Positions 30,081 through 51,887 of a stretch of DNA of 64,000 nucleotides are shown here, piece after piece. Source of the stretch: Candidatus Micrarchaeota archaeon (lineage in GTDB: Archaea > Micrarchaeota > Micrarchaeia > Anstonellales > Anstonellaceae); contig CAZOMB010000004.1 in the NCBI GenBank assembly GCA_964581105.1, positions 672-64,671 of the forward strand. The letters are read 5' to 3'. Position numbers and translations under genes: made by a program. Position 1 is the first letter of the stretch. Each line of letters begins with the position of its first letter. Below the pieces are notes generated by a model. That model was not told where the DNA came from. It made no database searches and saw only the letters and a program-made list of their open reading frames with translations.

Positions 30081-30091
30081 AGAGTGATACA

Positions 30092-32395: not shown

Positions 32396-33169
32396 ATGGT
32401 CAGAATAAAACTGCCGCAAAAAGGGGGCAAGTCAAGGACTTCAAAGGCTCCGCCAAGGCCTACAAAGCCAACTGTGAGCGGCTTTAGGGTGCATGGCAAA
32501 AGGCAGGCCAACCCAAAAGAGCTTTCCAAAAAGCTTTCTGAGCTGTCATTCCTTGAGATGAGCGTTGAGGGGGATTCCCTTGCAGTGCTGAATGTGGAGT
32601 CAAGGGACATACAAAAAAATCCGTATCTGTTCTCAATAGTTTACTTTAGGCCTGCAATGATAGAGGCAACCTATACATGCCTTGCAAACATGAGCCCGAA
32701 AAAAAGAAGGATAGATGTTTTGCGGCATTTTCTCAACCTGATGACAATAACAGAAGATTGCTATGAAATTGAGATACGCGAAGTTTACCAGCTTCTTGAG
32801 GCTGCGGTTGCGCACATGACCCAGTATGTTTCTGTTGACTATGACCGGCTTTTTTCTCTTTATGACAATTTGCAGACAGAATTTTCCAGCCTGAAGAAAA
32901 AGGCTGCCGAGGCAACTGAGGCAAACGCATCGCTTTCAAAAGAAAATTATGAGCTCAAGAGCAAAAATGACGAGCTCACCCTTAAGCTTGAGTCCCTTGA
33001 AACCTTTTCAGACTCTGTGCTTTCTGTCAAAATACAGGAATGGCTCTCAGAACACAAGGGCGAGATAAATATTGCTGACTTTTCCAAGGTATACAATGTC
33101 CCTGAGACACGGGTCGAGCAGATTCTCAACAAGCTTGTGACTGAAGGCTATATTGAGACAAAAGGCTAG
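32396..33169 (+). CDS. Coiled-coil protein with a C-terminal winged-helix-like domain
   Basis: A heptad-like segment is LQTEFSSLKKKAAEATEANASLSKENYELKSKNDELTLKLESLE. The C-terminal sequence is FSKVYNVPETRVEQILNKLVTEGYIE. Confidence 0.45.
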   Translation: MVRIKLPQKGGKSRTSKAPPRPTKPTVSGFRVHGKRQANPKELSKKLSELSFLEMSVEGDSLAVLNVESRDIQKNPYLFSIVYFRPAMIEATYTCLANMSPKKRRIDVLRHFLNLMTITEDCYEIEIREVYQLLEAAVAHMTQYVSVDYDRLFSLYDNLQTEFSSLKKKAAEATEANASLSKENYELKSKNDELTLKLESLETFSDSVLSVKIQEWLSEHKGEINIADFSKVYNVPETRVEQILNKLVTEGYIETKG

Positions 33170-35786
33170 GCACAAACCAAAGGTTATTCGCATGGTTGAA
33201 AAGGACAAGCTTCTCAAGCTGAAAATTTCAAAAAACGCATATGTTTTCGACGTGAGGAGAAAGTACAATGCAAAAAGGAGCTTTAGGGTGAAAAAAAAGC
33301 CTGACACGCCTTTTGATGACTTGAAGGGAACTGCCCTTTCTCTTTTAAAGAAAAAAAAGCAGGAGAAAAAGCAAGAAAAAAAGCCAAAAGCCCCACTCGG
33401 GGCAAAGCTGCCTGAAAGCCCAAAATCTGCAATTGCAAAGACAGCTGCGATTGTTGTCCTTATTTTCATTTTACTTGGCGCTGCATTTGTATGGCTAATG
33501 CTCCAAGGGCCTGGTGCAGGGCCAGAGGAAATTGAAGCGCCTGATGTTTTCTCAGGGTCATTCGGCTATTCAATAGAGCAGTCAATGGTCCTGTCTTCCA
33601 GCCAAGAGGATGAACTTTCTAGGTCTGCCTATTTTTTGGTTGACTTTGATGCAAGGAACCTTGGCGGGCTTAACTTTTCTGCATCTGTTTTCTCGCAAAA
33701 GCCCTCAGTCCAGGTATTTTTGCTTGACTATGCAAGGGACAGCGCTGACTCCTACCCTGTTTTCAGGAGGAATTTGATTGACAAGCTTAAAGAGAATGGG
33801 ATTTCTGTGAATGAGATAGACATTGAGGCGCTTTCTTCTTTGCCAGGAGGCGCCCTGGTTGTTGTGCCAACAGGCTATTTGCCAAAAGAGCTTTTGGGAA
33901 TTGGCAGCCAGCTTGACTTCAAAAAGCTTCTTTCGAGAGGGGTAACAATAGTTTACATTGGAAGGGAATTTGACTCGCTTGCCCTTGACCAGGCAGGCTC
34001 AGCAATCCCTGTTTCTTATAATGAGCTTTTGTTTGCAAAATCAAAGCCAGAGTCAGAGGATGGGTTTGGGCTGTATGACGCCCAGTATGTTGTTGGCCAG
34101 ATTGCAGGAAGAAATGACATTGACCTGGCTTTTTTTGGCAAAATATATGGCTCTGTTTCAGTCATAGGAAACAAAAACGGCTCTATTTTGTTCCTTCCCC
34201 AGTCGCTTGACGGAGGCTGGAGAACAGACGGCAAGGCAGCTGCACAAGATGTTGTAAGGCTTATAACAGAGGAAAGATGGCTTTCGCTTATTGCCTATGC
34301 CTCAAAGGAGATTGACCTTGAGGAAGAGCAATCAGGCATGGTGTCACTTTACTCAACCAGTTTTCCCAGTGACTCTGCGTATGTGAAATTCACTGCAAAA
34401 GCGCTTGACCTTGAGGGTAATGAAAGAAGCTCAACAGAAGTTCTCAAGCTAAAGAAAGTCCAGAAAGGGGAAATGACCCAGCCTGAGCCTGAGGCAGTCC
34501 CATATTACCTTTCAGGAGAGAGGACCAGGTTTAACATAGAGCTTAGGGAAACAGACCCCACGCCTGTAAAGCTTTATATCAGCATGTACAAGGACGGAAC
34601 TGAGCTTCAGCGCTCTGACCTTGAGCTTGGCCTTACAAACCCAACAATAGACAAGTCAGTTGATTTTCAGGTAAATGCAGAGCCAGGAAATTACACTGCA
34701 TATGTGGTAAACTCAAAAGGCAAAATATATGCTGCAACAAGGCTGGATGTTATTGACCTGCAAATATACACAAACAGCAGCGACTGGCAGCAAGGGAAGT
34801 TCACTTTCCTTCTTTCTGCAGCAGGAAAGCCTGTTGTTCCGCGCAGCCTTTCAATCTCCCTGGATGGGAAAGGGAAAAGGCAATACACCCCCTCTTCATT
34901 CGCATACTCAGGAACAAGCACTGCCATAACTTATGAATATGCAGGGGAGATAAAGCCTGGCTTGCATGAATTCATTTTTACTGCAGGCGACTGGAGCAAA
35001 AAATATGAGCAGGATTATTTTGCTGCCAAAAACTTTTGGGAAAACCCTGTTGTTATTTTTCTTGCAATTGTCTCGTTGGCTGTTTTTGGAATAGGCCTTA
35101 GCCTAAGAAGGCCAGAAGTCCTGAGATATGGGCTTGATGTTCCGGACTTTCCCCCTCTTTCAACAATAAAAATACCTGTGAAAAAGGAAACTGTGCTCGA
35201 TATACTTGACACTGTTAATGCCTCTTACTCATGGAAATGGATGCCGCTTGGCACTGATGAGATAAAAAAAGGCTTTAGAAAGCTGACTTACAACGGCAAG
35301 CCCATCCTAATAGGGGACTTTAACCTTGACATGGTGCTTGTCAAGCTTCGGGATGCCGGGCTTGTTAAAGAGGAGCTTGGCTATTGGGGCAGGGCTGAAT
35401 GGGAAAAGCAAAGCAACCATTCAATGCATTACCTTGCAATGTACAGGATTTTGCGCAATGTATTTGTGAACAATGCTGTGAAATTCTCAAAGCTGGATGC
35501 AATGAATGACTGTGACATAAAGGCAATTGTAGGGAAAGAAAGGCTGTATCTCCACATAATGGAAGAGCCAAAGGAAAGGGTTGTGCACAGGGCGCTTGCA
35601 ACCTCTGGCAAGGGCAAGACACTCATAGTATTCAGGTCAAAAGATGAGGCATCCTCCTTCCGCTCTTCTCTTACCTCAACCTCAAGGCTTGCTGTCGGGC
35701 TTAAGATGGAGGTCAACAGCAGGAACATATTGCTGCTTCCTGTGAAAAGAGGGGTTTCCGGGTATTTGAGGGGCCTTTCAAGGTAG
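33153..35786 (+). CDS. Large bitopic membrane protein of 877 aa. It has a basic N-terminus, TM1, an extracytoplasmic domain of about 470 aa, TM2 and a C-terminal cytoplasmic domain of about 230 aa.
   Basis: The hydrophobic helices are AAIVVLIFILLGAAFVWLML and VVIFLAIVSLAVFGIGLSL. It overlaps the upstream gene, which suggests translational coupling. Confidence 0.5.
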   Translation: MRQKARHKPKVIRMVEKDKLLKLKISKNAYVFDVRRKYNAKRSFRVKKKPDTPFDDLKGTALSLLKKKKQEKKQEKKPKAPLGAKLPESPKSAIAKTAAIVVLIFILLGAAFVWLMLQGPGAGPEEIEAPDVFSGSFGYSIEQSMVLSSSQEDELSRSAYFLVDFDARNLGGLNFSASVFSQKPSVQVFLLDYARDSADSYPVFRRNLIDKLKENGISVNEIDIEALSSLPGGALVVVPTGYLPKELLGIGSQLDFKKLLSRGVTIVYIGREFDSLALDQAGSAIPVSYNELLFAKSKPESEDGFGLYDAQYVVGQIAGRNDIDLAFFGKIYGSVSVIGNKNGSILFLPQSLDGGWRTDGKAAAQDVVRLITEERWLSLIAYASKEIDLEEEQSGMVSLYSTSFPSDSAYVKFTAKALDLEGNERSSTEVLKLKKVQKGEMTQPEPEAVPYYLSGERTRFNIELRETDPTPVKLYISMYKDGTELQRSDLELGLTNPTIDKSVDFQVNAEPGNYTAYVVNSKGKIYAATRLDVIDLQIYTNSSDWQQGKFTFLLSAAGKPVVPRSLSISLDGKGKRQYTPSSFAYSGTSTAITYEYAGEIKPGLHEFIFTAGDWSKKYEQDYFAAKNFWENPVVIFLAIVSLAVFGIGLSLRRPEVLRYGLDVPDFPPLSTIKIPVKKETVLDILDTVNASYSWKWMPLGTDEIKKGFRKLTYNGKPILIGDFNLDMVLVKLRDAGLVKEELGYWGRAEWEKQSNHSMHYLAMYRILRNVFVNNAVKFSKLDAMNDCDIKAIVGKERLYLHIMEEPKERVVHRALATSGKGKTLIVFRSKDEASSFRSSLTSTSRLAVGLKMEVNSRNILLLPVKRGVSGYLRGLSR

Positions 35787-37011: not shown

Positions 37012-38202
37012 TTGGTGAGATGCTTGCAAGTCTGCATATATTTCCAGGTCCATCAGCCAATGAGGCTTTCCTTATTCTCAATGTTTTCTGACAATGGGGA
37101 CTCTGGAGGGGCTTATTTTGACAAAGATTTGAACAGCAAAATAATGCAAAAGGTTGCTGAAAAGTGCTATATCCCTGCAAATCAGCTCATGCTTGAGCTT
37201 TTGGAAAACCACCCTGACTTTAAGATAAGCTATTCACTGACAGGGGTATTTATTGAGCAGTGCAAGCAGTTTGCGCCGCAAGTTTTGGAGTCTTTTGCTT
37301 CCCTTGCAAAAACAGGCAAAGTAGAGTTTTTGTCAGAGACCTATTATCACTCGCTTTCATACCTGTTTTCAGACAAGGACGAGTTTTTGGAGCAAATAAA
37401 GCTTCACAGCAAGGAAATCTCCTCATTTGCAAAGCCCTCAAAAGTATTCAGGAATACTGAGGCAATGTTTTCAAATGACATTGCCTATTTGGTTGAAAGG
37501 CTTGGGTATGAAGGCATACTTGCAGAAGGGCTTGAGCACATACTTGGCTGGCGCTCGCCAAACTACCTCTATACTGTGAATGGCTGCGAAAAAATCAAAG
37601 CCCTGCTTCGCCACTTCAAGCTTTCAGATGACATTGGCTACAGATTTTCTGCAAAATGGTGGAATGAACACCCGCTTACTGCAGACAAGTATGCGCGCTG
37701 GCTGTCAACCCTTCAGGGAGACTGTGTGAACATATTCATGGACTATGAGACATTTGGCGAGCACCACTGGAAAGACACAGGGATATTTGAGTTTTTAAGG
37801 CACTTGCCAACTGAGGTCGAAAAGCACAAGGATTTGCGGTTTGCAACCCCAACTGAGCTTGTGAAAAACATAGGGCCAAGGGATGACATAGATGTGCCCA
37901 ATTTGACCTCATGGGCAGACATGGAAAGGGACACATCTGCATGGCTTGGCAATGAAATGCAGAAAAACGCGTTTTCAGAGCTTGAAGCGCTTGGCGAAAA
38001 GGTAAAAGAGGCAAAGCATGATGGCTTGATGAGGACTTGGAGGATGCTTGGCAATTCAGACCATTTTTACTATATGTGCACAAAGTCATTGTCAGACCAG
38101 GATGTCCACAATTACTTTTCGCCCTATGACTCGCCTTTTGATGCCTACATAAACTACATGAACATATTGAATGATTTTCGGGAAAAAATTGGGAAAGTCT
38201 AA
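37012..38202 (+). CDS. Glycoside hydrolase family 57 protein
   Basis: The N-terminal CIYFQVHQPMR is the GH57 HQP motif. Its size and the adjacent GT are consistent with alpha-glucan metabolism. Confidence 0.6.
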   Translation: MVRCLQVCIYFQVHQPMRLSLFSMFSDNGDSGGAYFDKDLNSKIMQKVAEKCYIPANQLMLELLENHPDFKISYSLTGVFIEQCKQFAPQVLESFASLAKTGKVEFLSETYYHSLSYLFSDKDEFLEQIKLHSKEISSFAKPSKVFRNTEAMFSNDIAYLVERLGYEGILAEGLEHILGWRSPNYLYTVNGCEKIKALLRHFKLSDDIGYRFSAKWWNEHPLTADKYARWLSTLQGDCVNIFMDYETFGEHHWKDTGIFEFLRHLPTEVEKHKDLRFATPTELVKNIGPRDDIDVPNLTSWADMERDTSAWLGNEMQKNAFSELEALGEKVKEAKHDGLMRTWRMLGNSDHFYYMCTKSLSDQDVHNYFSPYDSPFDAYINYMNILNDFREKIGKV

Positions 38203-39206
38203 AGGCCACTCAGGTCAAATGCATCGTTCTTCTTGCCTATGCGGTAATTTCCAAAATTAGTGTTAATCTCCATATTAGTGCCTTTATGGTTTGAAGACAA
38301 ATAAAGCCGACCATTGCTCAGAACAAATTCTCTTTGCAAAAACCCAGTTCTAAGAGCAACTCTCACGTCTGATGAGACTGCAAAATCATTTGTGTGGGTG
38401 AGGAAACTAAAGCTCTCTGGCTCAATTGTTCCAAGATAAAAATCTTTACACGCTTCGTCAAACGAGTAACCGTACTCAGCCAGCCTGCTTTTAAGGTGCC
38501 AAAGATGCGGTGTTTCATCCAAGCCAGGGACCTGCTTGCCATTAAGGGAAAGTAAAAAGCCATATTCATTTCTTGGCCGTCCGTCAATATCTGTAATCGC
38601 AAAGACAAAATCCCCTATTTTGCCGTGCTTTTTGTGCCATACCTCATAGTTGCACTCTGATTCTGTGCTGGTTGTTTTGTTCAAGTAAGTCCGGCTGCCC
38701 CCAAGAAGAAGGTAATCTGCCTCAAAGTCAGCAATCTTCTTTATCTCATGAATTGAGTCTTCTGGGGCAAAAAAACCAATGTGCTCAAGCGCAAATGTGA
38801 CAAGCGATGAACTGTTTGATTTGACCACAGGCCCAGGCTCGATGCTTCTTTTCTCCATATATTTAAGCCAACTGGACAGGGATTCATACTGGTTTTCAAA
38901 AAGGCTGTCATTCTGAAGATATTCGAGGATGTGCAGGCCTATGCGCATTAATTGATCATCCTGATAACTTATTGACAGGCTATCAACAAGCTTTTGCTTT
39001 TCTTTTGCAAACCTTGGCTCTGTGCTTAGCGGATTTTTTTGCATGAAGTCAAGCAGCTCCTTGGAGTTGTTAAGTATCCTCTGCCTTGCATCTGACAAAC
39101 GCCTGGATACTGCAGTGCATGAGCCCCTAATCTGCCCTAATGCCTGCTTTCTTTCTTCTGGTGTACTGAATTTTGATGACATAACAATCAATCCCTTTTG
39201 TAGCAA
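38199..39206 (-). CDS. Hypothetical protein (335 aa) in a low-GC islet
   Basis: I recognise no motif. It overlaps the upstream gene by 19 nt. Confidence 0.4.
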   Translation of the reverse strand: MLQKGLIVMSSKFSTPEERKQALGQIRGSCTAVSRRLSDARQRILNNSKELLDFMQKNPLSTEPRFAKEKQKLVDSLSISYQDDQLMRIGLHILEYLQNDSLFENQYESLSSWLKYMEKRSIEPGPVVKSNSSSLVTFALEHIGFFAPEDSIHEIKKIADFEADYLLLGGSRTYLNKTTSTESECNYEVWHKKHGKIGDFVFAITDIDGRPRNEYGFLLSLNGKQVPGLDETPHLWHLKSRLAEYGYSFDEACKDFYLGTIEPESFSFLTHTNDFAVSSDVRVALRTGFLQREFVLSNGRLYLSSNHKGTNMEINTNFGNYRIGKKNDAFDLSGL

Positions 39207-40294
39207 CTCCTTGTAAGCTCTGATGATTTTTCTCCATTTTCATAAAGCCAAAGCTCGTTATTTCCAGGCTCAAGCCTTACTGAAAAATCCCCACTCTCAT
39301 CCTTAAGCTCAATTTTTGCTGAAGGCACTATTTTAAGGGAGCCAGCATCAGGCCATGACTCAATTGAAAACTGGAAAGCATCCGGCTTAACATCTTTCAT
39401 GTCAACGCAAAGGGCTTCATGGGTATAGCGTTTGACTCCCGGGGCTTTTGCTGATTTTAGAGGTATGCCCTGCTTCAGGTTTTTGTAGAGCAGCTCAAGG
39501 TCAAGCCTTGCTGTTTCAAGAAACAGCCGTAAAATAGCTTGGCAGTGCATACCCAATTTCTCAACCTGCAAGCCAGATACTTTCAGGTTAAAATCAAGTG
39601 TTTGAGCATCAATTATTTCTTTGCCCTTCTCATGAATAAGCTCATAAGAAAGAAGAGGCATTTTCAAAAGCCTGTCGGTTTCTTTCTTATTCTCGCAGGC
39701 AATCTTATGGGTTTGTACCCTTATCTCTCCAACTCTGTCCTTGAGTTCTTCGGAAAATATTCTATAAGTTTTCGCAGTTGGTCTGGCTGGAGGAGGAAAT
39801 ATCCAATCCACATGAAGGTCAATTGGAAGGAACAGCCTACTTGTGAAACTGAAAACATAGTTCATTGCTTCATCTCCAGCCCCATAATATGCAAGAAGAG
39901 GAAGGAGAGACTTGTTCTTTTTCATCAAATAATCGTTTTTTGCATCTGCAAAATAGCTTGGCTGGACTTTCTGGACATTCTCTTTATCTCCATGTATTGC
40001 TTTTCCAAAAATAGATACTTTCTGCAAATCATCGCTTGTTTTGACAACATGGTAAGAATAAGACAACCAATGCCTAGCCTCAAACTCAAAAGCCCTGAAG
40101 TTGCGCACCATCCTTTTATTGTCTTCTGATTTGGCACTACCTTCATCCAGGAAACTTCCTTTGACACACCTGTCAATAGCAAGAGTTCTGCCTAATTCTT
40201 CATCTACTCTTTTCTTAAGAACTCCAAAAGCTTGCCTAGTTTCTTCCACGTCTTTTGCTGCCTTATTCCTAATGTTTTCCAATACTTTTTGCAT
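39188..40294 (-). CDS. Hypothetical protein (368 aa) in a low-GC islet
   Basis: I recognise no motif. Composition is AT-richer than the neighbours. Confidence 0.4.
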   Translation of the reverse strand: MQKVLENIRNKAAKDVEETRQAFGVLKKRVDEELGRTLAIDRCVKGSFLDEGSAKSEDNKRMVRNFRAFEFEARHWLSYSYHVVKTSDDLQKVSIFGKAIHGDKENVQKVQPSYFADAKNDYLMKKNKSLLPLLAYYGAGDEAMNYVFSFTSRLFLPIDLHVDWIFPPPARPTAKTYRIFSEELKDRVGEIRVQTHKIACENKKETDRLLKMPLLSYELIHEKGKEIIDAQTLDFNLKVSGLQVEKLGMHCQAILRLFLETARLDLELLYKNLKQGIPLKSAKAPGVKRYTHEALCVDMKDVKPDAFQFSIESWPDAGSLKIVPSAKIELKDESGDFSVRLEPGNNELWLYENGEKSSELTRSCYKRD

Positions 40295-40412
40295 GGGGAA
40301 AATATGCTCTCTTCCCTTTTTAAATGTAATGCTGTTCCACTAATAACCACTACTATAATCTTATGCCAAACCCAAGCATTAGCAGTAAGTATATAATCCT
40401 CTTTTCCGATTT

Positions 40413-43118
40413 GTGAGCATGGCAGCAGCAAGGCAGGTAAAAGGCATGGGCAGGCAGAAAATGCTTGCAATGGTGCAAATGCTCAAAAGCGATGAAAACC
40501 TCGGGGATGCACTGCTGGTTGCGCTTGGCACGCTTTTCCTGCTTTCATCATTCATTTTTTATCCCCTTTATCTGGTGCCAGTGCTTGCTGCAATAACAGG
40601 CGCAATTGCTTACAAAAAGCCGCCATTAGGGACAATTGCTGCAATGTTCATAGCATTTCCAGCAGTTGCATATCAGGCGCCTGTTCTTGCCTGGGTATTT
40701 ACCCTGGCAATAGCAATAACCTTGTTTGAGGCATGGAACCATTGGAGCACAATCTCATTTTTGCAAATAGCAATACTTGCGCCGTTTGCCGCCTTTCCAT
40801 TTTCTCTGCTTTCCGGCTTTTTGTTCTTGGCCTTGGGAATTGCTGCCTTAAGGTTTGGAAGCAGTCACAGCTTTGCAGTCTCATTGCCAGCAATTTTTGT
40901 TGTTCTTTTGCTCTCTTCAGTATGGATGCAGCCAACAGAATCTTTCATAACAATATCAAACCAGTACTTGTCGCTTTATTCGCCAGCAATGGCCCAGCTT
41001 CAGAACAGCGCTTTGCCAGAGGTTGGGATTTTTGAGATGGCACCAGCAGCAGGAGGGGCAATTGCATCGATTTTCAGTGCGCAAAGCATAATTGCAGTTT
41101 CCCCTGCCCTTGGAAAACTTGTGAGCAATGCCTATCTTCTGATTTTCCAGGACTATGCAATTATCCAGCTGCTGGTATGGGCTGTTGCACTTTTTGTTTG
41201 CGCATTTTTGCCTGCAAGGCTTGACAGAGAGTACAAGCAGTCAATCTCATGCCTTGCCCTGTTCCTTGTGCCAATAACAAACTTTTTTGTTGCGCCTGCT
41301 TTTAACAACCCGTTTGACAGCATTTCATTTGCCTATTGCGCAGCATCAGTTGCAATAGTATTTGCAATGGAGCACTATGGCTTCAAGCTGAGCAGGGAAA
41401 GGATTGTGATGAGAAGGCAAAAGCAAAAGGCATTTGGAAAGTTTGGCATCCAAGACCTTGGAGATTCAGCAGGAGTTGAGTCGCTTGAGGATGTTGGGGG
41501 CTATAAGGACGTAAAAACAGAGCTGCAGGAGGCAATAATATCCCCAATAAAGAAAAAAGAGCTTGCCTATACATATGGGATAAAGCCCCCAAACGGAATT
41601 TTGCTTTTTGGCCCGCCTGGCACAGGAAAAACTTTGCTGATGAAAGCCCTTGCAAAGGAGCTGAATATTGGGTTTTATTATGTCAAGTGCTCTGACCTTT
41701 TGTCAGAGTGGTACGGGGAAAGCGAAAAAAACCTTTCAGAGGTATTTGCAAGCGCAAGAAAGAATGCGCCTTGCGTGCTTTTTTTTGATGAGATAGATTC
41801 CATTGGAAAAAAGAGAGACTCTTACACTTCTGACGACGTAGCCCCAAGAATAATGAGTGTGCTGCTGCAAGAGCTTGACGGATTTAGGGAAAAGAAAAAG
41901 ACTGTGATAACTATAGGGGCAACAAACATACCTGACCAGCTGGACCCTGCCTTGATGAGGCCTGGCAGGTTTGACAAGATAATTTACATGCCATTGCCAG
42001 ATGAGGCAGCAAGAAAAGCAATCTTTAAGGTGCATTTGAAAAAGCTGCCAGTTGACCAGGACCTTGACTTTGCAAAGCTGGCTGCAAAAACAAAAAGATA
42101 TTCTGGGGCAGACATAAAAAATATCTGCACAGAGGCAACCCGCCTTGCTGCAAAAGAGGCAGTAAAATCAGACGTTGTTGTGCCTGTGTCAATGAAACAC
42201 ATTCTTTCAACAATAAAAAAGCTCAAGCCTTCTGTCTCGCTATCCTCAATTGAGACTTACAAGAAGTTTAGGATGGATTATGAAAGAAGAAGCGAGGCAC
42301 AGGAAAAAAGCCCTGATGCAAAAGGAGTGCGCTGGGAAGATGTTGCAGGCCTTAAAGAGGTCAGAAGAGAGCTGCTTGAATCTATTGAGATTCCTCTTCT
42401 CCACGAGGACTTGATGAAAGACATGGATGTCCAGCCAAGCAAAGGATTGCTTCTTTTTGGCCCGCCTGGCTGCGGAAAAACAATGATAGTAAAGGCAGCT
42501 GCAAATGAGCTTAATGCAAACTTTCTCACAATATCAGGCGCAGAGCTTATGAAAGACAGGAGCAAAAGTCCCTCAGCCCATGTAAAGGAGATATTTAACA
42601 GGGCAAGAGAATCAGCGCCAGCCCTGATTTTCATTGACGAAATAGAAGCCTTGGCACCAAGCAGGGACCAGTACAGGGGGGGAATCCTTACTGAGCTTTT
42701 GCAGGAGCTTGACGGGATAAATGAGCTGAAAAATGTGCTTCTTGTCGGCGCAACAAACAAGCCAGGCACACTTGATGCTGCAATTTTAAGGCCTGGCAGG
42801 TTTGACAAGATAATTTACATACCGCCTCCAGACGAGCCTGCAAGGAAAAAGATATTTACAATAAATTTGGCAAAATTCCTGAAAGCAGTGAGCCTTGACA
42901 GGCTGGCAAAAGCAAGCGAGGGCTTTTCAGGCGCTGACATTGCCTCTGTATGCCAAAAGGCAAAAATGCAGATGGTAAGAAACAGGTTGAGAGGAAAGCC
43001 CTCAGCACTGAAAACAGCAGACGTAATAAGGATAATTGAAAAGAGAAGGCCATCAATAACGCAAAAGGCCTTGAGAAACTATTTTGCATTCATGCAGGAA
43101 TATGGCGAAAGAAAGTAA
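40413..43118 (+). CDS. Membrane-anchored Cdc48/VCP-like double-AAA ATPase (N-terminal polytopic domain, then D1 and D2 AAA modules)
   Basis: About 330 aa carrying 8-10 hydrophobic helices come first. [14 protein letters not shown]...[12 protein letters not shown] is D1 and [14 protein letters not shown]...[10 protein letters not shown] is D2. Both have second-region-of-homology arginines (PGRFDKIIY twice). Confidence 0.8.
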
Positions 43119-43471: not shown

Positions 43472-46255
43472 ATGAAAGGGATAAACGTAAAGAAAATTGC
43501 GGCCCTTGCCGGCACGGGTATCCTTTTGGGAGCCAGCTTAGGTTTCGCCGATGTAGTATATGGCGACACCCAGGTTGTTGACCAGAATGGACAACCGACA
43601 GTAAAGGTTTATGTCGGCAGCGCAGCAGCAATCTCTGACGGTGTGGCAGCAGCCAACATCGCAGCAAAGATTGCAAACGAGGCATATATGAGCTCGACTC
43701 TGACTGCCTCAGTGAGCGGAGACCCGACCTGCACAGTCGGATCTGACGTTGGTGGAACTGGAACTTGCGAACTCGTTGAGAGCAGCAAGACAGTTACTCT
43801 TGAAGTAACCCTGCCAGGAAGCATTGCAGGAACCCACCAGTTTAAGACGCTCATAACAGACACGGTTGACAGGACCCTGCAAAACAGGAATGCCACAAGG
43901 TCTGAGGACAACTATACCTCAACCATGGGCTCTTCTGACACGTCAGGTGCACTTACTTCACCGCTTAGGGCGGTAGAAGGAGACACTGCAAGGGCAAAGA
44001 ACCTTTACAAGATTGGTTCTGGCCAATTCACTGGCTTTGCTGACTACTCTATGGTAGACACACAGGCAGTGAGCACCACGTACACTGAAGAGCAGAACTT
44101 TTGGGTTGGCTCTACTGTGGGCGGTGTTAAGTATGATTCCTCTTCAGCATATAGGGACATCATAGTTAACAAGTTCAGAGCAATGGCCTATAACCTGAAG
44201 TTCACTGGTAATGACTATGGTATTCCAGTGTGCACTGGAGACCTTAACTCAACCCTATCTGACGACTGGACGAGTTGCGCAACTGACTCCAACTCAAGGA
44301 CTGACAGGCACAGGCTTAAGCTTAAGTTCCTGGGTTCTGAGTGGATAATCAGTGAAATGAATGACCCTGTCCTCACAATGAGGAGCCAGGTCAATGCAAC
44401 CAGCGGAGGAACTGTCAAGCTTGCCAAAGAGGCAAAGTATGGCATTGTCCAGGTCGGAGGAGTGCTCGACGCAGGAACATTCCAGATCAGGCTGTCAGAC
44501 ATTTCAGTCGCAGTCGGAGCTGCAAATGTGCACCCTGCAATCATTGACGTGCTCGACGCCAACGAGGCAGTCGTAGGACAGATTCAGGTCGACCCAGGCT
44601 CTACCTATACTTTCACTCAGAGCGGAACTGGCAACACAGTGAAGATTCACGTGTATAAGACTGCGCCAGGTTTCACACTGAACGCAAAGTGGGCAGAGAT
44701 GGCAATCTACTCTGATGAGGTTACCCTTAAGGATGGCCAGAGATACAACCTTGTTTCATCCACTGACACTGACAAGAACTTTAAGGTGTCTTTGATTTGG
44801 AAGAACAGGGACTTTACTGGCTCAACAGGAGGAAACGACTCATCTGCAGACTCACTTCGTGAGATCGTTGTGTATAACATTGACGGTCTTGACAGCAAAG
44901 TGGCTGCAGGAGATGTTGTAAACTTCCTTGAGGCAGCACCAACATTTAAGCTGACCTACAATGGGCTTGACCTTACTGACGACGACTACCAGCCTCTTAC
45001 ATATGACGCTCTGTCACCAGACACATACCGTGTTGCAACCACCACAGGTGATGTTGCATGCGGCGCAACAAGTGCTGCTGACTGGTCATATGCAGACGCC
45101 AAGTGGGTTGAGATAAAGACTGGCGGAGTCCAGCTTCTCGGAGGAAGTGGCACCAACCTTATCAATGGTGGCTACTTGCTTGAGAAGGTTTACTTTGACC
45201 CAATCGGTAGATACAACAACAGCAGCTCAACCTTTAATGGGACCTTTAACCAGAGCGTGCGGAAGGAGATGTGGAACCCCACTATCTTCTGGAAGGTTTC
45301 AGGAAGGGACTGCTATAACTGGAACAGCTTTAGCTACGAAGGTGCAGCATACACAACCACTGACTCAAACGCAGTTAGGTTTGAGACAGCCGGCGACAAC
45401 ACTGCTGCACTTGGTGGAATCTTCTTCACCAACAATTCAACCCTTACGACAACTGCCTCTGATACGGCAAGTTTCCAGGGAGCAATTGTTCTGAAAGAAG
45501 ACGCTGGCTACTATGGATTGACCAGCAACAACGCAGTGTACACTGCTATACCGTATATTGCAAACGGAAGCAGCAGCACAAGCGGAACCAACCCCTTCAG
45601 GTTTAGGACTGCGGACTCATCTACTCAGCAGGCATATTACAACTCGCTTGCTGGCGGTATCTGGTTCACAGGCTATGAGCCAACATTTGTAAGTGAGAGG
45701 GGATCAAAGGTTACCAGCGTTGGAACCACTGACGCAGACTTCAAGGTTGCAAAGAGAGTCGGACTCGCGGAGTTCAACTTTGCCTTTGCAGACACCTCAG
45801 CCGCAACCGGCGGAGAGGAATATGTGCTTGGAGTTGGCGACAGCAAAGTGTTTGGTGGCGTGACTGTATTGGTCAAGGCCATTGACGCTGATTGCGGAAG
45901 CTGCTCAGTTCTCGGCCCAGGCGGAACACCTGCATGCACTGTTGACACAACAGACCTTACTGCTGTGATTAACCCGAACAACGCGGCATCTGTTGAGGTA
46001 ACTGAACCTTACAAGCTGACCTCTAACATGGTCATGCTTGACACAGATGGCCCAAGCGCTGGCGTGGCAATTACAGTCGGTGGACCTGCTGTCAACACAA
46101 TGACTGCAGACGCTCTCCAAGACTCAAGTGTTGACTTCAACGTTGACACTGTAGTCGTTAAGGAGGTCGGCAACAAGATAGTTGTTGCAGGACTGACTGC
46201 TGAGGACACTTTGACTGCTGCAGACCAGTTTATTGCTGGTGTGAAGAGGCAGTAA
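43472..46255 (+). CDS. Major cell-surface (S-layer candidate) protein, 927 aa
   Basis: It has a signal peptide. Codon usage is strongly NNC/NNG-biased (GAC, AAC, AAG, TTC, TAC), unlike the rest of the window. It has a long leader and strong promoter. A hairpin plus oligo-T terminator follows. A paralog lies at 19593-22271. Confidence 0.6.
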   Translation: MKGINVKKIAALAGTGILLGASLGFADVVYGDTQVVDQNGQPTVKVYVGSAAAISDGVAAANIAAKIANEAYMSSTLTASVSGDPTCTVGSDVGGTGTCELVESSKTVTLEVTLPGSIAGTHQFKTLITDTVDRTLQNRNATRSEDNYTSTMGSSDTSGALTSPLRAVEGDTARAKNLYKIGSGQFTGFADYSMVDTQAVSTTYTEEQNFWVGSTVGGVKYDSSSAYRDIIVNKFRAMAYNLKFTGNDYGIPVCTGDLNSTLSDDWTSCATDSNSRTDRHRLKLKFLGSEWIISEMNDPVLTMRSQVNATSGGTVKLAKEAKYGIVQVGGVLDAGTFQIRLSDISVAVGAANVHPAIIDVLDANEAVVGQIQVDPGSTYTFTQSGTGNTVKIHVYKTAPGFTLNAKWAEMAIYSDEVTLKDGQRYNLVSSTDTDKNFKVSLIWKNRDFTGSTGGNDSSADSLREIVVYNIDGLDSKVAAGDVVNFLEAAPTFKLTYNGLDLTDDDYQPLTYDALSPDTYRVATTTGDVACGATSAADWSYADAKWVEIKTGGVQLLGGSGTNLINGGYLLEKVYFDPIGRYNNSSSTFNGTFNQSVRKEMWNPTIFWKVSGRDCYNWNSFSYEGAAYTTTDSNAVRFETAGDNTAALGGIFFTNNSTLTTTASDTASFQGAIVLKEDAGYYGLTSNNAVYTAIPYIANGSSSTSGTNPFRFRTADSSTQQAYYNSLAGGIWFTGYEPTFVSERGSKVTSVGTTDADFKVAKRVGLAEFNFAFADTSAATGGEEYVLGVGDSKVFGGVTVLVKAIDADCGSCSVLGPGGTPACTVDTTDLTAVINPNNAASVEVTEPYKLTSNMVMLDTDGPSAGVAITVGGPAVNTMTADALQDSSVDFNVDTVVVKEVGNKIVVAGLTAEDTLTAADQFIAGVKRQ

Positions 46256-46267
46256 AGGTAGCCAAAC

Positions 46268-46313
46268 GGGAAAGTGAAAGCTTTCCCACCCTTTTTTCTT
46301 TTTCTGTTTTTTT
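46268..46313 (+). terminator. Hairpin (GGGAAAG...CTTTCCC) followed by a T-tract (CTTTTTTCTTTTTCTGTTTTTTT)
   Basis: This is visible directly downstream of the 927-aa gene. Confidence 0.5.
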
Positions 46314-46423
46314 ACAATTCTTAGCAAGAGCCCTGCCAAAACTAATACTTATATAAATTCTGGGAGGCGAAATTTAGGTAGCGCGCTTGCTGCGACCAAA
46401 AGCGCGCATAAGGTGGTGCTTGA

Positions 46424-48529
46424 ATGAGAATTTTTGCTTTGATGCTTTGCTTTGTGCTGCTCTTGCAGCCTACTTTTTCAGCTGAGTTTTCAATAGACCC
46501 TTACCTTTACTCAGGTGAAACTGCGTCAATGGTTGAGACTACTATATTTACTTCAAACAACAGCACTGCAAAACTTCTGAAAATTGACAATGAGGAAATA
46601 ATGCTTGTTGTTGACGACAAGATAATTGAGGACAGGGGGCAGATAAAGGGGCTGATAACAGAATACTATAAAAAGAACTTTTATGCGTCTGACGAGGAGC
46701 TTAAAGAGCTCAAAGGGTTTGCAGACGACTTTAATGACAGCAGGAATTACAAGACAAGGTATGGGCCTGTAGAATATGTTTGCTATACTTCTGGCACGTT
46801 TCTTGCGCATATTCCCTGCCATGACATGGGAAGCTGCATACAGACTGCGTCCACTTATTGCGCTATAACAGGTGCACAAGGCTGCATTGTTGACCTTCTT
46901 GCCACCCATATACTTGAGTACAAGAATGACCTGGACAAGCTGAACAGTGCATATGAAAAATTTGACATTGCTTACACCACCTTTTCCCCTGAGACTGCTT
47001 CATTATCCCTTGACAATATGGACGATGCGTTTAATGAAATGAAAGACGCTGCAGACAGCATTGCAGACAGCAAGCTGCGGTTCCCTGAGACCACATCTTG
47101 CATGGACTGCATAGGCGTGTGCCCTGAGGCGCATTTTGATTATGGGGCAATAAGCTCAGGAAAGAGCAAGGTTGCCCAGCTAAGGGAAAAAATAGGCCCT
47201 CTTGCAAGCCTTGGGACTGCTGTTGACAGGATTTTGCTTTCAACAGAGGAGAGGATAAAATACAGGGAAGGCGAGGAAAAAGCCCTGATTTTTGAGCCAA
47301 AATACGAGGCTGTGAAAACAAAATTTGAGGATTTGAAGGCACAGGCAGTTGAAGCAAAGGCACTTGTTGCAGACAAGAGCTTTGTTGACAGCGCTGATTT
47401 GTTTTTGGACAAGGCTGAAGAGCTTGAGCAAAGGGTTTTGGCGCGCGATTTTGATGGGTTTAACCCCCTGCTCTCAAGCTATGAGACTGCTGGCTGGACT
47501 TTGGCTGCAAAAATAAACAATTCCACTTCTGCCTATAAGACGGCATTTGAAACCCAGGATGATGCAGGAGACAAAGTGCTGCTTGCCCAGTGGGGAGTCA
47601 ACAGGCTTTCGCCAGCATCTGTTGACTCATACAACTCTCTTGCAAAGAGAAAAAATACTCTTGACTCTGATTTTGACCCCCCAATGACCTCTGCCCAGTA
47701 TTATGCGCTTTCATCGAATTATGATGACCTTGCCTCAGATGCACAGGCATTTGTAGCAGCTTCAGGAGGAATACAAGACTCAATATTTGGGGCAGGCAAT
47801 GCAATCTCAAGGGATGCCATTGACGGCACAATGACCTTGGCTTCAAATATTATGCCTGTGTCATTCAAGACAAGAAAAGAATATGCACCATATATACTGC
47901 CATTTGTCATTGCTGTTGTTGACCTTTCTTTGCTTTCAGTCGGCCTGCTGGCATTTGCAGCCGTGTTTTACTATTTCCATGGGTTTTTCAAAAGCAAGCT
48001 TGCAGTATCAGGCTGGGCAATTTCAATGCTTGCATTTGTCTTCATAATGCTCATAGGCTCTGCAGGCATTTACGCAGTTGTGTTCAGCACTGAGAGTTAC
48101 ACTGATTTTGTTGACTTTATGGGCACAGTAAAGGCTTCTAACAGCGTTGCAGTCATAGTTGACGAGAGTGGCGTGCCGTCAGGGGCTTCTGACTCAATGA
48201 AAGCATGCGCAGGCCAGATACAGGACCAGCTTGATGAGCTTGACAAGCAAACATTGAAGTATTATATCAACACAAACAAGTGCACATCAATAATCCCAAA
48301 GCCTTCTGCAAACAATTCAAGTGAAACTGTATATGAAACTCTTCATAACCTGGTTGCAGAAGACTGCCTTGACTCAATACCCGACATCCCTGTGATTGAG
48401 CTTAGGTACTCAAGCGAGAACAAGGTGCCAAGCTTCACAACAGTTGTCACACAGCAGGCAATCTTTAAAGGCAATGCTGCCTATTATGACAAAGCGCCTA
48501 TGTGCGACCCTGCAAATGTATTGAATTAG
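46424..48529 (+). CDS. Secreted protein with two C-proximal TM helices, unknown function
   Basis: It has a signal peptide (MRIFALMLCFVLLLQPTFSA) and hydrophobic helices around aa 490-560. Confidence 0.45.
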   Translation: MRIFALMLCFVLLLQPTFSAEFSIDPYLYSGETASMVETTIFTSNNSTAKLLKIDNEEIMLVVDDKIIEDRGQIKGLITEYYKKNFYASDEELKELKGFADDFNDSRNYKTRYGPVEYVCYTSGTFLAHIPCHDMGSCIQTASTYCAITGAQGCIVDLLATHILEYKNDLDKLNSAYEKFDIAYTTFSPETASLSLDNMDDAFNEMKDAADSIADSKLRFPETTSCMDCIGVCPEAHFDYGAISSGKSKVAQLREKIGPLASLGTAVDRILLSTEERIKYREGEEKALIFEPKYEAVKTKFEDLKAQAVEAKALVADKSFVDSADLFLDKAEELEQRVLARDFDGFNPLLSSYETAGWTLAAKINNSTSAYKTAFETQDDAGDKVLLAQWGVNRLSPASVDSYNSLAKRKNTLDSDFDPPMTSAQYYALSSNYDDLASDAQAFVAASGGIQDSIFGAGNAISRDAIDGTMTLASNIMPVSFKTRKEYAPYILPFVIAVVDLSLLSVGLLAFAAVFYYFHGFFKSKLAVSGWAISMLAFVFIMLIGSAGIYAVVFSTESYTDFVDFMGTVKASNSVAVIVDESGVPSGASDSMKACAGQIQDQLDELDKQTLKYYINTNKCTSIIPKPSANNSSETVYETLHNLVAEDCLDSIPDIPVIELRYSSENKVPSFTTVVTQQAIFKGNAAYYDKAPMCDPANVLN

Positions 48530-48538
48530 GGGATTTTT

Positions 48539-49009
48539 ATGAAGCTTAAAGAAAAGGACAAGTTAGCCTTGTTTGCGCTTATTGGAGTGCTTGCAATTGC
48601 AGCAGGAGCATATGTGCTGCTTTTCTCAGAAGAGCCGGACAATCCTTCTGACATTGACGGCTTTGTCTCTTCTGTTATGCGCTCAAGCTCTGTTTCCCTG
48701 TTTTTTGATGTCAGAGGGGCAGATGCTGACTCTTCAAGGCTGATTTACCAGTGCGGGGTTGACCTTGTAGGCGGCAAGCTGCTTGGGGCAAAGACAATAA
48801 ACACATATGCATGCGATGATAAGGGATGCCTTTCAGCAAGCTCTGCTGCAAACGGGAGCAATTCTTTGACATATGAGCAGGTGAAAAACAATCTCAAAAA
48901 AGAGCCATATGTCCTGATAGCTAAAGGCACTCCTGAAACCAAATTCTTTGAAAGGCATATGGAAATCTACATAGACCAGAGCTTTATCTCAACCTGCAAG
49001 CTTGGCTAA
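48539..49009 (+). CDS. Small N-terminally anchored protein, unknown function
   Basis: A single TM is present (LALFALIGVLAIAAGAYVLLF). Confidence 0.4.
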   Translation: MKLKEKDKLALFALIGVLAIAAGAYVLLFSEEPDNPSDIDGFVSSVMRSSSVSLFFDVRGADADSSRLIYQCGVDLVGGKLLGAKTINTYACDDKGCLSASSAANGSNSLTYEQVKNNLKKEPYVLIAKGTPETKFFERHMEIYIDQSFISTCKLG

Positions 49010-49048: not shown

Positions 49049-50128
49049 ATGGACATAGAGGGAAAACTAGCTCTTGTGAGGAAAAAGCCTGTTTGCGAGA
49101 TAGTCACAGAAACAGAGCTGCAAGAGCTTTTTGAGGCAAATTCCCATCCAAAGCACTATATTGGATTTGAAATCTCAGGAAATTTGCATTTAGGAAGCGG
49201 GCTTGTTACTTCCCTTATTCTAAAGGACTTTATTGCAGCAGGAATAAGGCCAACAATACTTTTGGCAGATTATCATGCATGGATAAACAAGAAAATGGGT
49301 GGGGATTTAGAGAAAATACAAAACATTGCAAAAGGCTATTTCAAGTCAGCATTTGTCTCCCTTGGCCTTCCTGAGAATAAGGTAAACTATGTTCTTGCCT
49401 CTGAGCTTTACAAAAAGCTTGGCAATGACTACTGGAAAGAAGTGTTGGCCGTATCAAAGTCAACTACTATGAAAAGGATGCTACGCTGCACAACAATAAT
49501 GGGACGGACGAAAAAAGAGTCTGTTGACTGCTCTTCTGTGCTTTACCCTGCAATGCAGACAGCTGACATTTTTGCTCTTGGAATTGACATTGCGCATTCT
49601 GGCATTGACCAGAGAAAAGTGCACATGCTTGCAAGGGAAGCAGCTGAAAAGCAAAAGAAAAAGAAAGTGGTTGCAATACACCACAAGTTGCTTATGGGCC
49701 TTTTAGGGCCGCAAAAGATGGGCTTTGAGGAAAATGAAAAGCAGGACATTGAAATATCCTCAAAAATGAGCAAAAGCAGGCCAGAGTCAATAATATGCAT
49801 ACATGATTCTGAAAAAGAGATTCAAGACAAGCTGAAAAAAGCCTATTGCCCTGAAAAGCAGGCTGAAAACAACCCTGTGCTTGAGATGTGCGACAATTTC
49901 CTGCTCAGGGACGAAAAATCCTCTCTTAAAATTGAAAGGCCCTCAAAATTCGGGGGAAACGTTGAGTTTTCCTCTTACAATGAGCTTGAAAAGGCGTATT
50001 TGTCAGGAAAGCTCCACCCAGCTGACCTGAAAGGGGCTGTAACAAAGTCAATTACCAAAATGCTAGAGCCGTCAAGAAAATATTTTGAACAGCACAAACA
50101 GCTGCTTTCTGGGCTGCAGCAAAAATAG
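49049..50128 (+). CDS. tyrS: Tyrosyl-tRNA synthetase (archaeal type)
   Basis: YIGFEISGNLHLGSG is the HIGH-class motif and KMSKS is present. The C-terminal half (RKVHMLAREAAEK...KAYCPEKQAENNPVLEMCDNF...PSKFGGNVEFSSYNELE) is strongly similar to M. jannaschii TyrRS. Confidence 0.85.
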   Translation: MDIEGKLALVRKKPVCEIVTETELQELFEANSHPKHYIGFEISGNLHLGSGLVTSLILKDFIAAGIRPTILLADYHAWINKKMGGDLEKIQNIAKGYFKSAFVSLGLPENKVNYVLASELYKKLGNDYWKEVLAVSKSTTMKRMLRCTTIMGRTKKESVDCSSVLYPAMQTADIFALGIDIAHSGIDQRKVHMLAREAAEKQKKKKVVAIHHKLLMGLLGPQKMGFEENEKQDIEISSKMSKSRPESIICIHDSEKEIQDKLKKAYCPEKQAENNPVLEMCDNFLLRDEKSSLKIERPSKFGGNVEFSSYNELEKAYLSGKLHPADLKGAVTKSITKMLEPSRKYFEQHKQLLSGLQQK

Positions 50129-50135
50129 GGAAAAA

Positions 50136-51887
50136 ATGGGCAAGATAAGTCTTTTTGCACTGATGCTTTTGCTTTTTGCTAGCCATGCTTTTGCAGCCTG
50201 CCCGCAAGAAACAAGGGAAATATATGTTGCAGCAGTCACAGGCGAAAACTCAGGGGGCATATTCCAGCTTGAGGTTGAAGTAAAGCCAGGGGACGGCTCA
50301 ATATACACGTCAATAGTGCCAAGGACAGGCTTTTCCACGCAAGAATCAGAGCAAATGGCAGTTGACTATGCATTTGGCAAAACAAGCATAACAAAGCAAG
50401 AATGCGATGTTCTCTTCAGGGTAAAGGGGAATTTTGGGGATAATGTGATTAATGGCCCGTCCGCAGGCGGGGCAATGGCAGCTGCAACAACTGCTGCGCT
50501 TCTTAACAAGAGCATAAGGCAGGATGTTGTTATGACAGGCACTGTTTCGCCTGAAGGCAATGTTGGCGAGGTTGGAGGGGTAATTGAAAAGTCAATAGCA
50601 GCAGCTGATGCTGGCGCAAAATATATACTTGTGCCAAAGCTCAAGATTTACGAGGCATTGCTTCTTTCATCAATTTCACAGGACCATGGGTTCAATGCTT
50701 TGGAAGTTTCAAGCATTGAAGAGGCCGAAAAAGTGCTTTTTTCAGATTATGATGATGAGTTTTCAACCAAATTTTCCCCAGAAAGTGGCCCAATCCCGGC
50801 AAACCTTGAGCCAATAGCCAAAGACTCAGACATTTCCCGGTTTTCCCTTGTAGCGCAAGAAGTTGTAAACAGGCTCAAGCAAAAAACAAGTGAAATGCTC
50901 TCAGAAAATGTTAGTAGCCAGAGCATAGAGGGATTAAAGCATTATTTTGAGGAAGAAATATCAAAGTATGACAAGCTGATTATAATGGGCTATCCATTCA
51001 CAGCAGCAAACTCTGCTTTTTTGCTTTCAATTGACGCAGAATATGTGATAATAGGCAATGCAGATGTTGACCTTGACGGAAGCATTGAAGAGGTGTCAGG
51101 CTGCATCTCATCGCTTAACCCTTCTGAAAAGACTTATGAAAATTTCCATTGGGCCATTGGCTCTGACCTAAGAAGGCTTTGGGCACAGGAAAAGCTGCAA
51201 GGCACTGTTGAGAGTCGGCCTGCGCAAGGAGGCTATACCACTTTAAGGGACCTTCTTTTTGCCTATAGCTGGTGCTCAATATCAGATGACCTTGCAGGCC
51301 AGGCAGAAACAATAGGCGGAGAAAAAGCAAATGAATCGCTTTTATACTCTCTTGCACAGGAAAAGCTTGAGGAAGCCCATGAGGCGGTTTCAACAGCCTC
51401 AATGCTAAATTATGATGCCCTGTGGCATTACTCAAATGCTCTTTCTGCAAATGAGACTGGCCTTTATGGCGCAGCAATTTATGAGTCAACATATGCCAGC
51501 ACAATGCAGAGGATTTCAAGCACATCTTCTGAAAACCTGAGCATGGCTGCAGAAAAGCTTGCTTCTGGGAAGAGGAAAAGCCTTTGGGGAAAAATATATT
51601 TTGGCCAGGGAAAATACCTTTACTCGGAAGATAAGGAAAATGCTGCTTCCCCAACTGACAGCTACCGGATATTCAAATACTCTTATGAGCTTGACAAAGT
51701 GGCAAGAGAGATTGACGAAGAACTTTTAAAGGGCAAAAAGCAAACAATTCAACCAATACCAGCAGTTGAAGAGCAGGAGGCACCAAGCGAGGAAGATATT
51801 CTTGTGTCGGCATTCCTTGCAGCCTCTGTTGCAGTGCTTGGGATTGCAATTGCGTACAGGATTTTAAGAAGAAAGAGGAGTGATTGA
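50136..51887 (+). CDS. Extracytoplasmic Lon-like (S16) peptidase-domain protein without an ATPase module. It has a signal peptide and a C-terminal TM.
   Basis: VINGPSAGGAMAAATTAALLNKSIRQDVVMTGTVSPEGNVGEVGGVIEKSIAAADAGAKYILVPK matches the Lon proteolytic domain (Ser in GPSAG, downstream Lys). The signal peptide is MGKISLFALMLLLFASHAFA. The C-terminal helix is LAASVAVLGIAIAYRIL. Confidence 0.65.
   Translation: MGKISLFALMLLLFASHAFAACPQETREIYVAAVTGENSGGIFQLEVEVKPGDGSIYTSIVPRTGFSTQESEQMAVDYAFGKTSITKQECDVLFRVKGNFGDNVINGPSAGGAMAAATTAALLNKSIRQDVVMTGTVSPEGNVGEVGGVIEKSIAAADAGAKYILVPKLKIYEALLLSSISQDHGFNALEVSSIEEAEKVLFSDYDDEFSTKFSPESGPIPANLEPIAKDSDISRFSLVAQEVVNRLKQKTSEMLSENVSSQSIEGLKHYFEEEISKYDKLIIMGYPFTAANSAFLLSIDAEYVIIGNADVDLDGSIEEVSGCISSLNPSEKTYENFHWAIGSDLRRLWAQEKLQGTVESRPAQGGYTTLRDLLFAYSWCSISDDLAGQAETIGGEKANESLLYSLAQEKLEEAHEAVSTASMLNYDALWHYSNALSANETGLYGAAIYESTYASTMQRISSTSSENLSMAAEKLASGKRKSLWGKIYFGQGKYLYSEDKENAASPTDSYRIFKYSYELDKVAREIDEELLKGKKQTIQPIPAVEEQEAPSEEDILVSAFLAASVAVLGIAIAYRILRRKRSD

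Follow-up and report, generated by a model that had tools for sequence, protein, structure and literature searches.

The window analysed in this study is a stretch of 64,000 nucleotides (nt) from contig CAZOMB010000004.1 of a Candidatus Micrarchaeota archaeon (assembly GCA_964581105.1), and the gene under study, located at 40419..43118 on the forward (+) strand, encodes a tandem-AAA ATPase in which a polytopic membrane domain with 10 predicted transmembrane (TM) helices precedes two AAA modules. It was found as a single uninterrupted open reading frame (ORF) at 40413..43118 (+), from which 899 amino acids (aa) are obtained with the ATG at 40419 as the start and 901 aa with the in-frame upstream GTG at 40413, the stop codon being at 43116-43118. 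In the public gene call (P0006; 899 aa, identity 100%), the start is placed at ATG 40419. A TATATAA sequence at 40390..40396 (+), about 26 nt upstream of this ATG, was read as a candidate archaeal TATA box, and its position would fit an own promoter and a leaderless archaeal mRNA starting at the same codon. The intergenic region between the ATPase gene and the divergent gene on its upstream side is 118 bp long.

From the N-terminus, the product is predicted to begin with a cytoplasmic, basic amphipathic helix (aa 12-26, 40446..40490, +; a helix in the AlphaFold2 model), followed by the polytopic membrane domain (aa 28-321, 40494..41375, +) and a basic cytoplasmic linker (aa 322-360, 41376..41492, +), in which an SRE motif with the invariant E329, a helix, an FGKFG sequence and a disordered stretch lead up to the first AAA module. 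In the Kyte-Doolittle analysis, the hydrophobic segments were located within aa 30-320 and none was present downstream. The AlphaFold2 model of aa 3-368, built from an alignment in which 37 diverse N-terminal regions share 35-61% identity with the query, was all-helical with a predicted local distance difference test score (pLDDT) of 88.8 and a predicted template modelling score (pTM) of 0.84, and pLDDT fell below 50 beyond model residue 349, at the end of the linker.

The topology was assigned by combining the AlphaFold2 helices with the charge distribution over 106 sequences, according to the positive-inside rule. The numbers of lysine plus arginine residues (K+R) per sequence were 1.0, 0.25, 1.1 and 2.6 in the short loops assigned inside and 0.06, 0, 0 and 0.3 in those assigned outside, and they reached 3.9 and 7.0 in the N-terminal segment and the linker, respectively. 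The loop between TM7 and TM8 (about 75 residues, aa 172-248, 40926..41156, +) was assigned outside; it contains two amphipathic helices as well as the invariant Y189 and D247, and is net acidic, with 3.8 K+R versus 7.0 aspartate plus glutamate residues per sequence. A topology of 10 TM helices with both termini inside (N-in/C-in) is supported by hydropathy, the model and the positive-inside rule taken together. A preliminary description of the locus had proposed a polytopic domain of 8-10 helices in place of the Cdc48 N-domain, and the 10 predicted helices in about 320 residues, with neither CDC48_N nor CDC48_2 among the Pfam matches, bear this out.

The membrane domain is strongly conserved. 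Despite identities down to 35%, 13 columns are invariant in the 37-sequence alignment of aa 3-368, and nine of them lie in the membrane domain. Q88, W111, P124-F125, G149-S150, W171, Y189 and D247 are the family-invariant polar or aromatic residues, F49, Y87, S153, Q252, W256 and Q276 are kept at 96% or above, and F49-Y50-P51, Y87-Q88 and G149-S150-x-x-S153 form invariant or near-invariant strings. In the predicted topology, many of the conserved residues are placed at the outer ends of the helices. No conserved histidine was found in the membrane domain across the 106 orthologs. An intramembrane protease of the metalloprotease or rhomboid-like kind was considered and rejected, since E106, H110 and H152 are invariant only in the six closest sequences and are unconserved across the 106 orthologs.

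No Pfam family matched aa 1-350, even at E values up to 5. The profile search of PDB with the membrane domain gave no sequence match, the Foldseek comparison of its model with the solved structures gave no match (best E 0.26, TM-score 0.20), and no viral predicted structure matching it was found. The modelled membrane domain has no known fold match so far, and the family may offer a new membrane-protein fold for structure solution. When 1.84 billion cluster representatives were searched with a profile of the membrane domain, 84 matches were obtained at E values of 1e-3 or lower and 55 at 1e-10 or lower, and nearly all the full-length matches were of about 900 aa.

The remainder of the protein is made up of the two AAA modules. 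D1 (aa 361-625, 41493..42287, +) contains Walker A (GPPGTGKT, aa 400-407), Walker B (FFDEID, aa 457-462), the sensor-1 residue N505, a pair of arginine fingers (R516 and R519) and a lid, and closes with a Vps4_C-like helix. D2 (aa 646-901, 42348..43115, +) contains Walker A (GPPGCGKT, aa 683-690), Walker B (FIDEIE, aa 740-745), the sensor-1 residue N782, the arginine fingers R793 and R796, and a lid. With Pfam, the AAA domain PF00004 was detected twice (E=4e-84; best stretch aa 396-528), as was AAA_lid_3, and Vps4_C-like helices terminate both modules. The 106 orthologs are invariant or nearly so at Walker A and B, at sensor-1 and at the two arginine fingers of D1 and of D2, and both modules belong to the classical AAA clade by its criteria; the two canonical modules with arginines in the second region of homology (SRH), named in the preliminary description, were thus located in full. 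Neither Peptidase_M41 nor Lon_C was found in the protein with Pfam, in line with the earlier statement that a protease domain is missing, and the sequence stops right after the D2 lid.

Each module was compared separately with known ATPases. D1 alone scored 244 bits on D2 and 176 bits on D1 of p97, and D2 alone scored 210 bits on D2 and 175 bits on D1 of Cdc48A. With the NCBIfam models, each module matched CDC48 (TIGR01243, profile positions about 450-731) better than PAN, and PAN better than FtsH and CdvC. By these comparisons, both modules resemble the D2 module of Cdc48/p97/VAT. The whole protein scored 526.1 bits against the curated CDC48 model TIGR01243 (cutoff 802.65), 474 and 451 bits against the PAN models (cutoff 500) and 415 bits against the FtsH model TIGR01241 (cutoff 600), below the cutoff in each case. 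The earlier designation as Cdc48/VCP-like therefore stands for the ATPase modules and fails for the protein as a whole, as both modules are D2-like and the CDC48 cutoff is not reached. Within the protein, D1 and D2 are only 39% identical, which argues against a recent internal duplication; this possibility was rejected also because the 195 bits scored between the two modules are fewer than the 244 bits of D1 with the D2 of p97.

The two modules differ in their pore loops, a point not raised in the preliminary description. Pore loop 1 of D1 (S-E-W-Y-G-E-S-E, aa 431-438, 41703..41726, +) is near-invariant across the family; the corresponding region of D2 (aa 710-724, 42540..42584, +) has no aromatic residue in the window protein and is poorly conserved in the family. 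Inteins, which typically home to functionally critical sites, were found in about 10 orthologs inside the D1 pore loop, between WYGE and SE after E436 (about nt 41720), as PF14890 together with LAGLIDADG. The orthologs noted with an intein are P0040, P0041, P0043, P0044, P0049, P0056, P0057, P0071, P0074, P0127, P0128 and P0130, and the intein sizes range from about 165 aa (P0128) to about 1000 aa (P0130); the copy in the window is without an intein. The insertion of inteins exactly at the D1 pore loop fits with that loop being under the strongest constraint.

The joining of the membrane domain to the two modules was verified at the junction and in the family. The sequence across nt 41350-41420 (aa 313-336) is continuous, just ahead of the family-invariant E329 and then FGKFG, and the identical protein is recorded on 7 contigs. 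In the full-length search, over 120 proteins with a length of about 900 aa were recovered at 48-75% identity and 98-100% query coverage. They carry the names Candidatus Micrarchaeota, Micrarchaeia, Anstonellaceae, Burarchaeum or Bilamarchaeaceae, and their sole annotation is 'AAA family ATPase' or 'VCP-like ATPase'. The same fusion was sought in other archaea, as had been recommended in the preliminary description, and at least 106 loci were confirmed in the scan of species-representative genomes, with the 80 loci listed all being from Micrarchaeota-type (DPANN) metagenome-assembled genomes (MAGs). The window protein bears every family motif, namely FYP, YQ, PF, GSxxS, D247, Q252 and W256 of the 10-TM domain, the FGKFG linker, SxWYGESE of D1, the D2 motifs and the C-terminal EYGER[KR]. 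The gene is real and intact, and the conservation of the membrane-domain/tandem-AAA fusion across Micrarchaeota is confirmed.

As judged from the alignments, the Micrarchaeota proteins with 10 TM helices and two AAA modules are a lineage-wide family, which is defined in the present analysis; in the literature search, no description of this architecture was found. That genome-reduced symbionts have kept it throughout their phylum speaks for an important role. Separate contigs (L063 and L079) of the MAG JAWOLP01 (bin_281) each encode one family member, which suggests paralogy or strain mixture in some genomes.

Beyond this family, distant relatives of the membrane domain were detected. P0160 is a 619-aa single-AAA paralog from Anstonellaceae with D1 only, its membrane domain matches at E=7.5e-29, and several members of identical length are present on large contigs. 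P0192 (874-894 aa, two AAA modules) represents 13 cluster members, the one named member being from a Thermoprotei MAG, and P0180, P0182, P0184 and P0205 (900-1400 aa) have only Thermoplasmata or Thermoplasmatales MAGs as named sources. In the Thermoplasmata-type forms, an extracellular region of about 340 aa is followed by the membrane domain and then one or two AAA modules, with one in the P0180 type. Among the distant relatives, Walker A is degenerate in P0185. The membrane-domain E values for the P0192 and P0180 types are from 5e-10 to 1e-5. These weak matches align through the membrane region (profile positions about 18-147) and carry their AAA modules independently, so that the pairing of the membrane domain with AAA modules looks ancient but rare. 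A search with the non-AAA part of a Thermoplasmata-type relative returned 10 MAG proteins only. The single-AAA forms of about 650 aa, P0155 and P0158, were set aside as probably truncated gene calls, because the same clusters hold members of about 920 aa; P0160 alone among the apparent single-AAA forms looks genuine.

The protein was compared with the known systems nearest to it. With Cdc48/p97/VAT, which gave the best sequence matches (E about 1e-126 for D1 alone), it shares a tandem of AAA modules in which Walker A and B, sensor-1, a lid and an SRH with two arginine fingers are present each time, and its D1 pore loop is almost identical to the D2 loop LLTMWFGESE of p97. It differs from them in having the 10-TM domain instead of the double-psi-barrel/beta-clam N-domain, and two D2-like modules with no Cdc48-type D1. 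In metazoan p97, the aromatic pore loop is in the second ring and the degenerate one in the first; in the Micrarchaeota protein this order is reversed, the aromatic loop belonging to D1 and the degenerate one to D2. The family is thus a natural case of gripping and non-gripping rings arranged in the opposite order to p97. Cdc48 was reported from each of the 81 archaeal genomes covered in PMC3493965, and it would be remarkable if the present protein were the sole ATPase of the Cdc48 type in its genome. PAN/Rpt proteins have an N-terminal coiled coil, an OB domain and a single AAA module, whereas the Micrarchaeota protein has a membrane N-domain and two modules, and unlike archaeal Cdc48 and PAN it has no C-terminal hydrophobic-tyrosine-any residue (HbYX) motif.

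FtsH, Yme1 and AFG3L2 are alike in belonging to the classical AAA clade, in the N-terminal membrane anchor and in an AAA entry face directed towards the membrane, and their role in membrane-protein extraction matches the one proposed below. In FtsH, however, 2 TM helices flank a periplasmic domain and a single AAA module is followed by the M41 zinc protease (HEXXH) at the C-terminus, as against 10 TM helices, two AAA modules and no protease here. Archaeal LonB is an AAA+ protein with inserted TM helices and a Lon S16 protease, and the Micrarchaeota protein is without Lon_C. Msp1/ATAD1 and Bcs1 are protease-less, membrane-anchored AAA motors which move proteins out of or across the membrane; they provide a functional precedent for the proposed mechanism but have a single TM helix, a single AAA module, an eukaryotic or mitochondrial distribution and unrelated N-terminal regions. 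The nearest parallels for how the Micrarchaeota protein appears to work are FtsH or Msp1 for the geometry and Cdc48/VAT for the motor.

To our knowledge, the membrane-anchored AAA motors studied so far (FtsH, Yme1, Msp1 and Bcs1) carry a single ATPase ring together with one or two TM helices. In the present family, a large conserved membrane domain without a recognisable fold is joined directly to a protease-less, two-ring motor of the Cdc48 type. The Sulfolobus MBA proteins (Serek-Heuberger et al. 2009, cited in PMC3493965) were the only archaeal group described as membrane-bound AAA that the literature search brought up, and Forouzan et al. (PMC3493965) treat them as a separate cluster. They are similar by description as archaeal, membrane-bound classical AAA proteins without a protease domain; no match named Sulfolobales was obtained in the membrane-domain profile search or its follow-ups, and no relationship was demonstrated.

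Taken together, we favour a protease-less motor for the extraction or remodelling of membrane proteins, with the membrane domain recruiting or presenting the substrates, a proposal to which we give about an even chance of being correct. On the basis of the architecture, predicted topology, intact motifs, conservation and taxonomic range described above, we infer a hexamer, a threading direction, a substrate class and a role for the membrane domain as follows. Classical AAA modules of the Cdc48 type form hexameric rings and thread polypeptides, which enter at the N-terminal face of ring one. Since both modules are homologous to the D2 of Cdc48/p97/VAT, a stacked double hexameric ring would be positioned under the cytoplasmic membrane and held by six 10-TM domains (60 helices) through basic linkers of about 40 residues. 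With the N-terminus in the membrane and a linker of this length, the N-terminal entry face of D1 would have to be turned towards the membrane, as it is in FtsH. A polypeptide segment offered at the membrane or within it would be gripped by the invariant W-Y-G pore loops of D1, and ATP hydrolysis would thread it through D1 and then D2 into the cytoplasm. D2, which should be ATPase-competent by its motifs and in which pore loop 1 is degenerate, would probably contribute ring stability and power and not grip. The membrane domain is probably more than an anchor, because conserved aromatic and polar residues are located mainly at the outer leaflet and the outside loop of 75 residues is conserved, and most likely it recruits or presents membrane or surface proteins. 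If the protein is a dislocase, it would be a new route to membrane-protein quality control in archaea without FtsH.

Three points weigh against this proposal. A protease domain (with Pfam) and an HbYX motif were both not found, and these would have indicated the route of a threaded substrate; the clustering of neighbours at the 80 loci gave no phylum-wide partner gene, and hence nothing pointing to a substrate; and an enzymatic or transport function apart from substrate presentation could account equally well for the conservation of the membrane domain.

Among the other explanations, a tethered remodeller survives best, and we regard it as doubtful. The membrane domain would then be only an anchor, and the ATPase would disassemble complexes on the cytoplasmic face, such as those of division, S-layer secretion or pili, in the manner of Vps4/CdvC or NSF. 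The Vps4_C-like helix at the end of both modules is consistent with this, as are the place of CdvC among the better NCBIfam matches, the position of the gene ahead of an S-layer-like cluster in a subclade and the FtsZ gene in the same window (55590-56546, -). A mere anchor, however, needs neither 10 TM helices with invariant polar residues nor a conserved outside loop, no MIT-like or other adaptor-binding domain was found with Pfam, and the adjacency to the S-layer-like gene is seen at 16 of the 80 loci, across a gap of 350 bp in which the downstream gene probably has its own promoter.

A self-contained translocon motor, suggested purely by analogy with Cdc48-Hrd1/Derlin and Ycf2-FtsHi, is an unlikely alternative by our estimate. 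Six membrane domains would form or line a protein-conducting path, and the AAA rings would pull whole polypeptides into the cytoplasm, the cargo being retrotranslocated surface proteins or host-derived proteins taken up by obligate symbionts. Such a path would agree with the large, highly conserved membrane domain without a known fold, with its conserved residues mainly towards the outer leaflet and its conserved outside loop, with a gripping pore loop in the membrane-proximal ring and with a family essentially confined to one DPANN lineage. Against it, the Foldseek comparison revealed no resemblance in fold to SecY, YidC, Derlin/rhomboid or Hrd1, and no conserved partner genes were found at the 80 loci. 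In its boldest form, which we hold to be slightly less likely still, the protein would be a self-contained retrotranslocon or import machine, in which the 60 TM helices of an unseen fold serve as the conduit and D1 pulls in the cell's own surface proteins or host-derived ones; it would then be a prokaryotic equivalent, made of one type of polypeptide, of Cdc48-Hrd1/Derlin or Ycf2-FtsHi. If the membrane domain is a conduit, the family would provide a minimal model of ATP-driven retrotranslocation.

The extraction motor could also hand on its substrates, with the D2 ring docking to the 20S proteasome as a membrane-anchored activator, and this we consider improbable. The window protein ends with QEYGERK, according to the motif F-x-x-E-Y-G-E-R-[KR] (43089..43115, +), which is invariant in the family; the EYGER[KR] terminus of the window protein and about 95% of the family has its tyrosine at position -5 and not at the penultimate one, and corresponds to the terminal helix normally seen in D2-type modules and not to HbYX. 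With no HbYX motif in the window protein, direct docking is unsupported, and the suggestion in the preliminary description that the proteasome might be fed is not upheld for this protein. Among the C-termini inspected, only five, those of P0101, P0112, P0122, P0071 and P0127, have a low-complexity tail beyond EYGER which ends with the HbYX-like HYR, MYR or QYR. From their sequences, these five tails hint that some lineages couple the motor to the 20S proteasome, so that feeding is conceivable for a minority of relatives. Docking to the 20S proteasome via HbYX is established for archaeal Cdc48 and AMA (PMC3493965). The HbYX-like Pba protein noticed earlier near 59.5 kb was recovered as a PAC2-family (PbaA/B-like) gene at 59541-60284 (+), 16 kb from the ATPase gene, with a product ending SLGSMYG, and can be counted in favour of an activator; the window ORFs that were scanned, which are a part of the total, yielded no proteasome subunit, and this counts against it.

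Less probable again is that the membrane domain is an enzyme or a small-molecule or lipid transporter (flippase, polymerase- or ligase-like) which the AAA rings regulate or energise. In its favour, the TM helices hold invariant Q, D, S, W and Y residues in their interior or at their ends, and the neighbours in the window include glycosyltransferase, GH57 and S-layer genes. However, no transporter or enzyme family or fold was matched, the residues suggesting a metalloprotease are conserved only among the close relatives as described above, and the intact aromatic pore loop of D1 is typical of polypeptide translocases; classical-clade AAA modules with such loops are, as far as we know, all polypeptide translocases. 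Finally, an artefact, in which a frameshift or chimeric assembly fused a membrane-protein gene with a Cdc48 fragment, has practically no probability left, given the same protein on the 7 contigs and more than 100 independent full-length orthologs with the conserved junction, and the doubt raised on this point in the preliminary description is removed.

As to the gene neighbourhood, two overlapping divergent genes (335 and 368 aa; 38199-40294, -) are located immediately upstream of the ATPase gene. Neither has a Pfam match, no homolog of them was detected at any of the 80 related loci, and they may for this reason be strain-specific or mobile. Downstream, an AT-rich spacer of 350 bp separates the ATPase gene from a block at 43472-49009 (+), which consists of an S-layer-like gene (927 aa, PF05124) and then genes of 701 aa and 156 aa without an assigned function. 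This block follows the ATPase gene in one subclade only, with the S-layer-like, 701-aa and 156-aa genes at 16, 12 and 7 of the 80 loci, respectively. An operon with the downstream S-layer gene was therefore rejected as a general feature, from an adjacency detectable at only 14-16 of the 80 loci and the AT-rich gap.

Among the other genes of the window, three ORFs of 892, 877 and 940 aa (19593-22271, +; 33153-35786, +; and 60954-63776, -, respectively) are without a Pfam match; the 877-aa gene has a homolog upstream of the ATPase gene at 7 loci, alongside GT4 and GH57 genes. Neither the FtsZ gene nor a gene for a HerA/DUF87-type ATPase (30026-31699, +) is evidently linked to the ATPase gene. 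The product of the gene at 50085-51887 (+) is a protein of 600 aa with a signal-like N-terminus, a Lon_C (S16) domain without an AAA+ module and a C-terminal TM anchor, and by these features it looks like an extracytoplasmic, ATPase-less Lon-domain protease. The gene at 53899-55593 (+) encodes an aRF1/eRF1 release factor (eRF1_1, eRF1_2 and eRF1_3) with an intein splicing domain at about aa 193-343.

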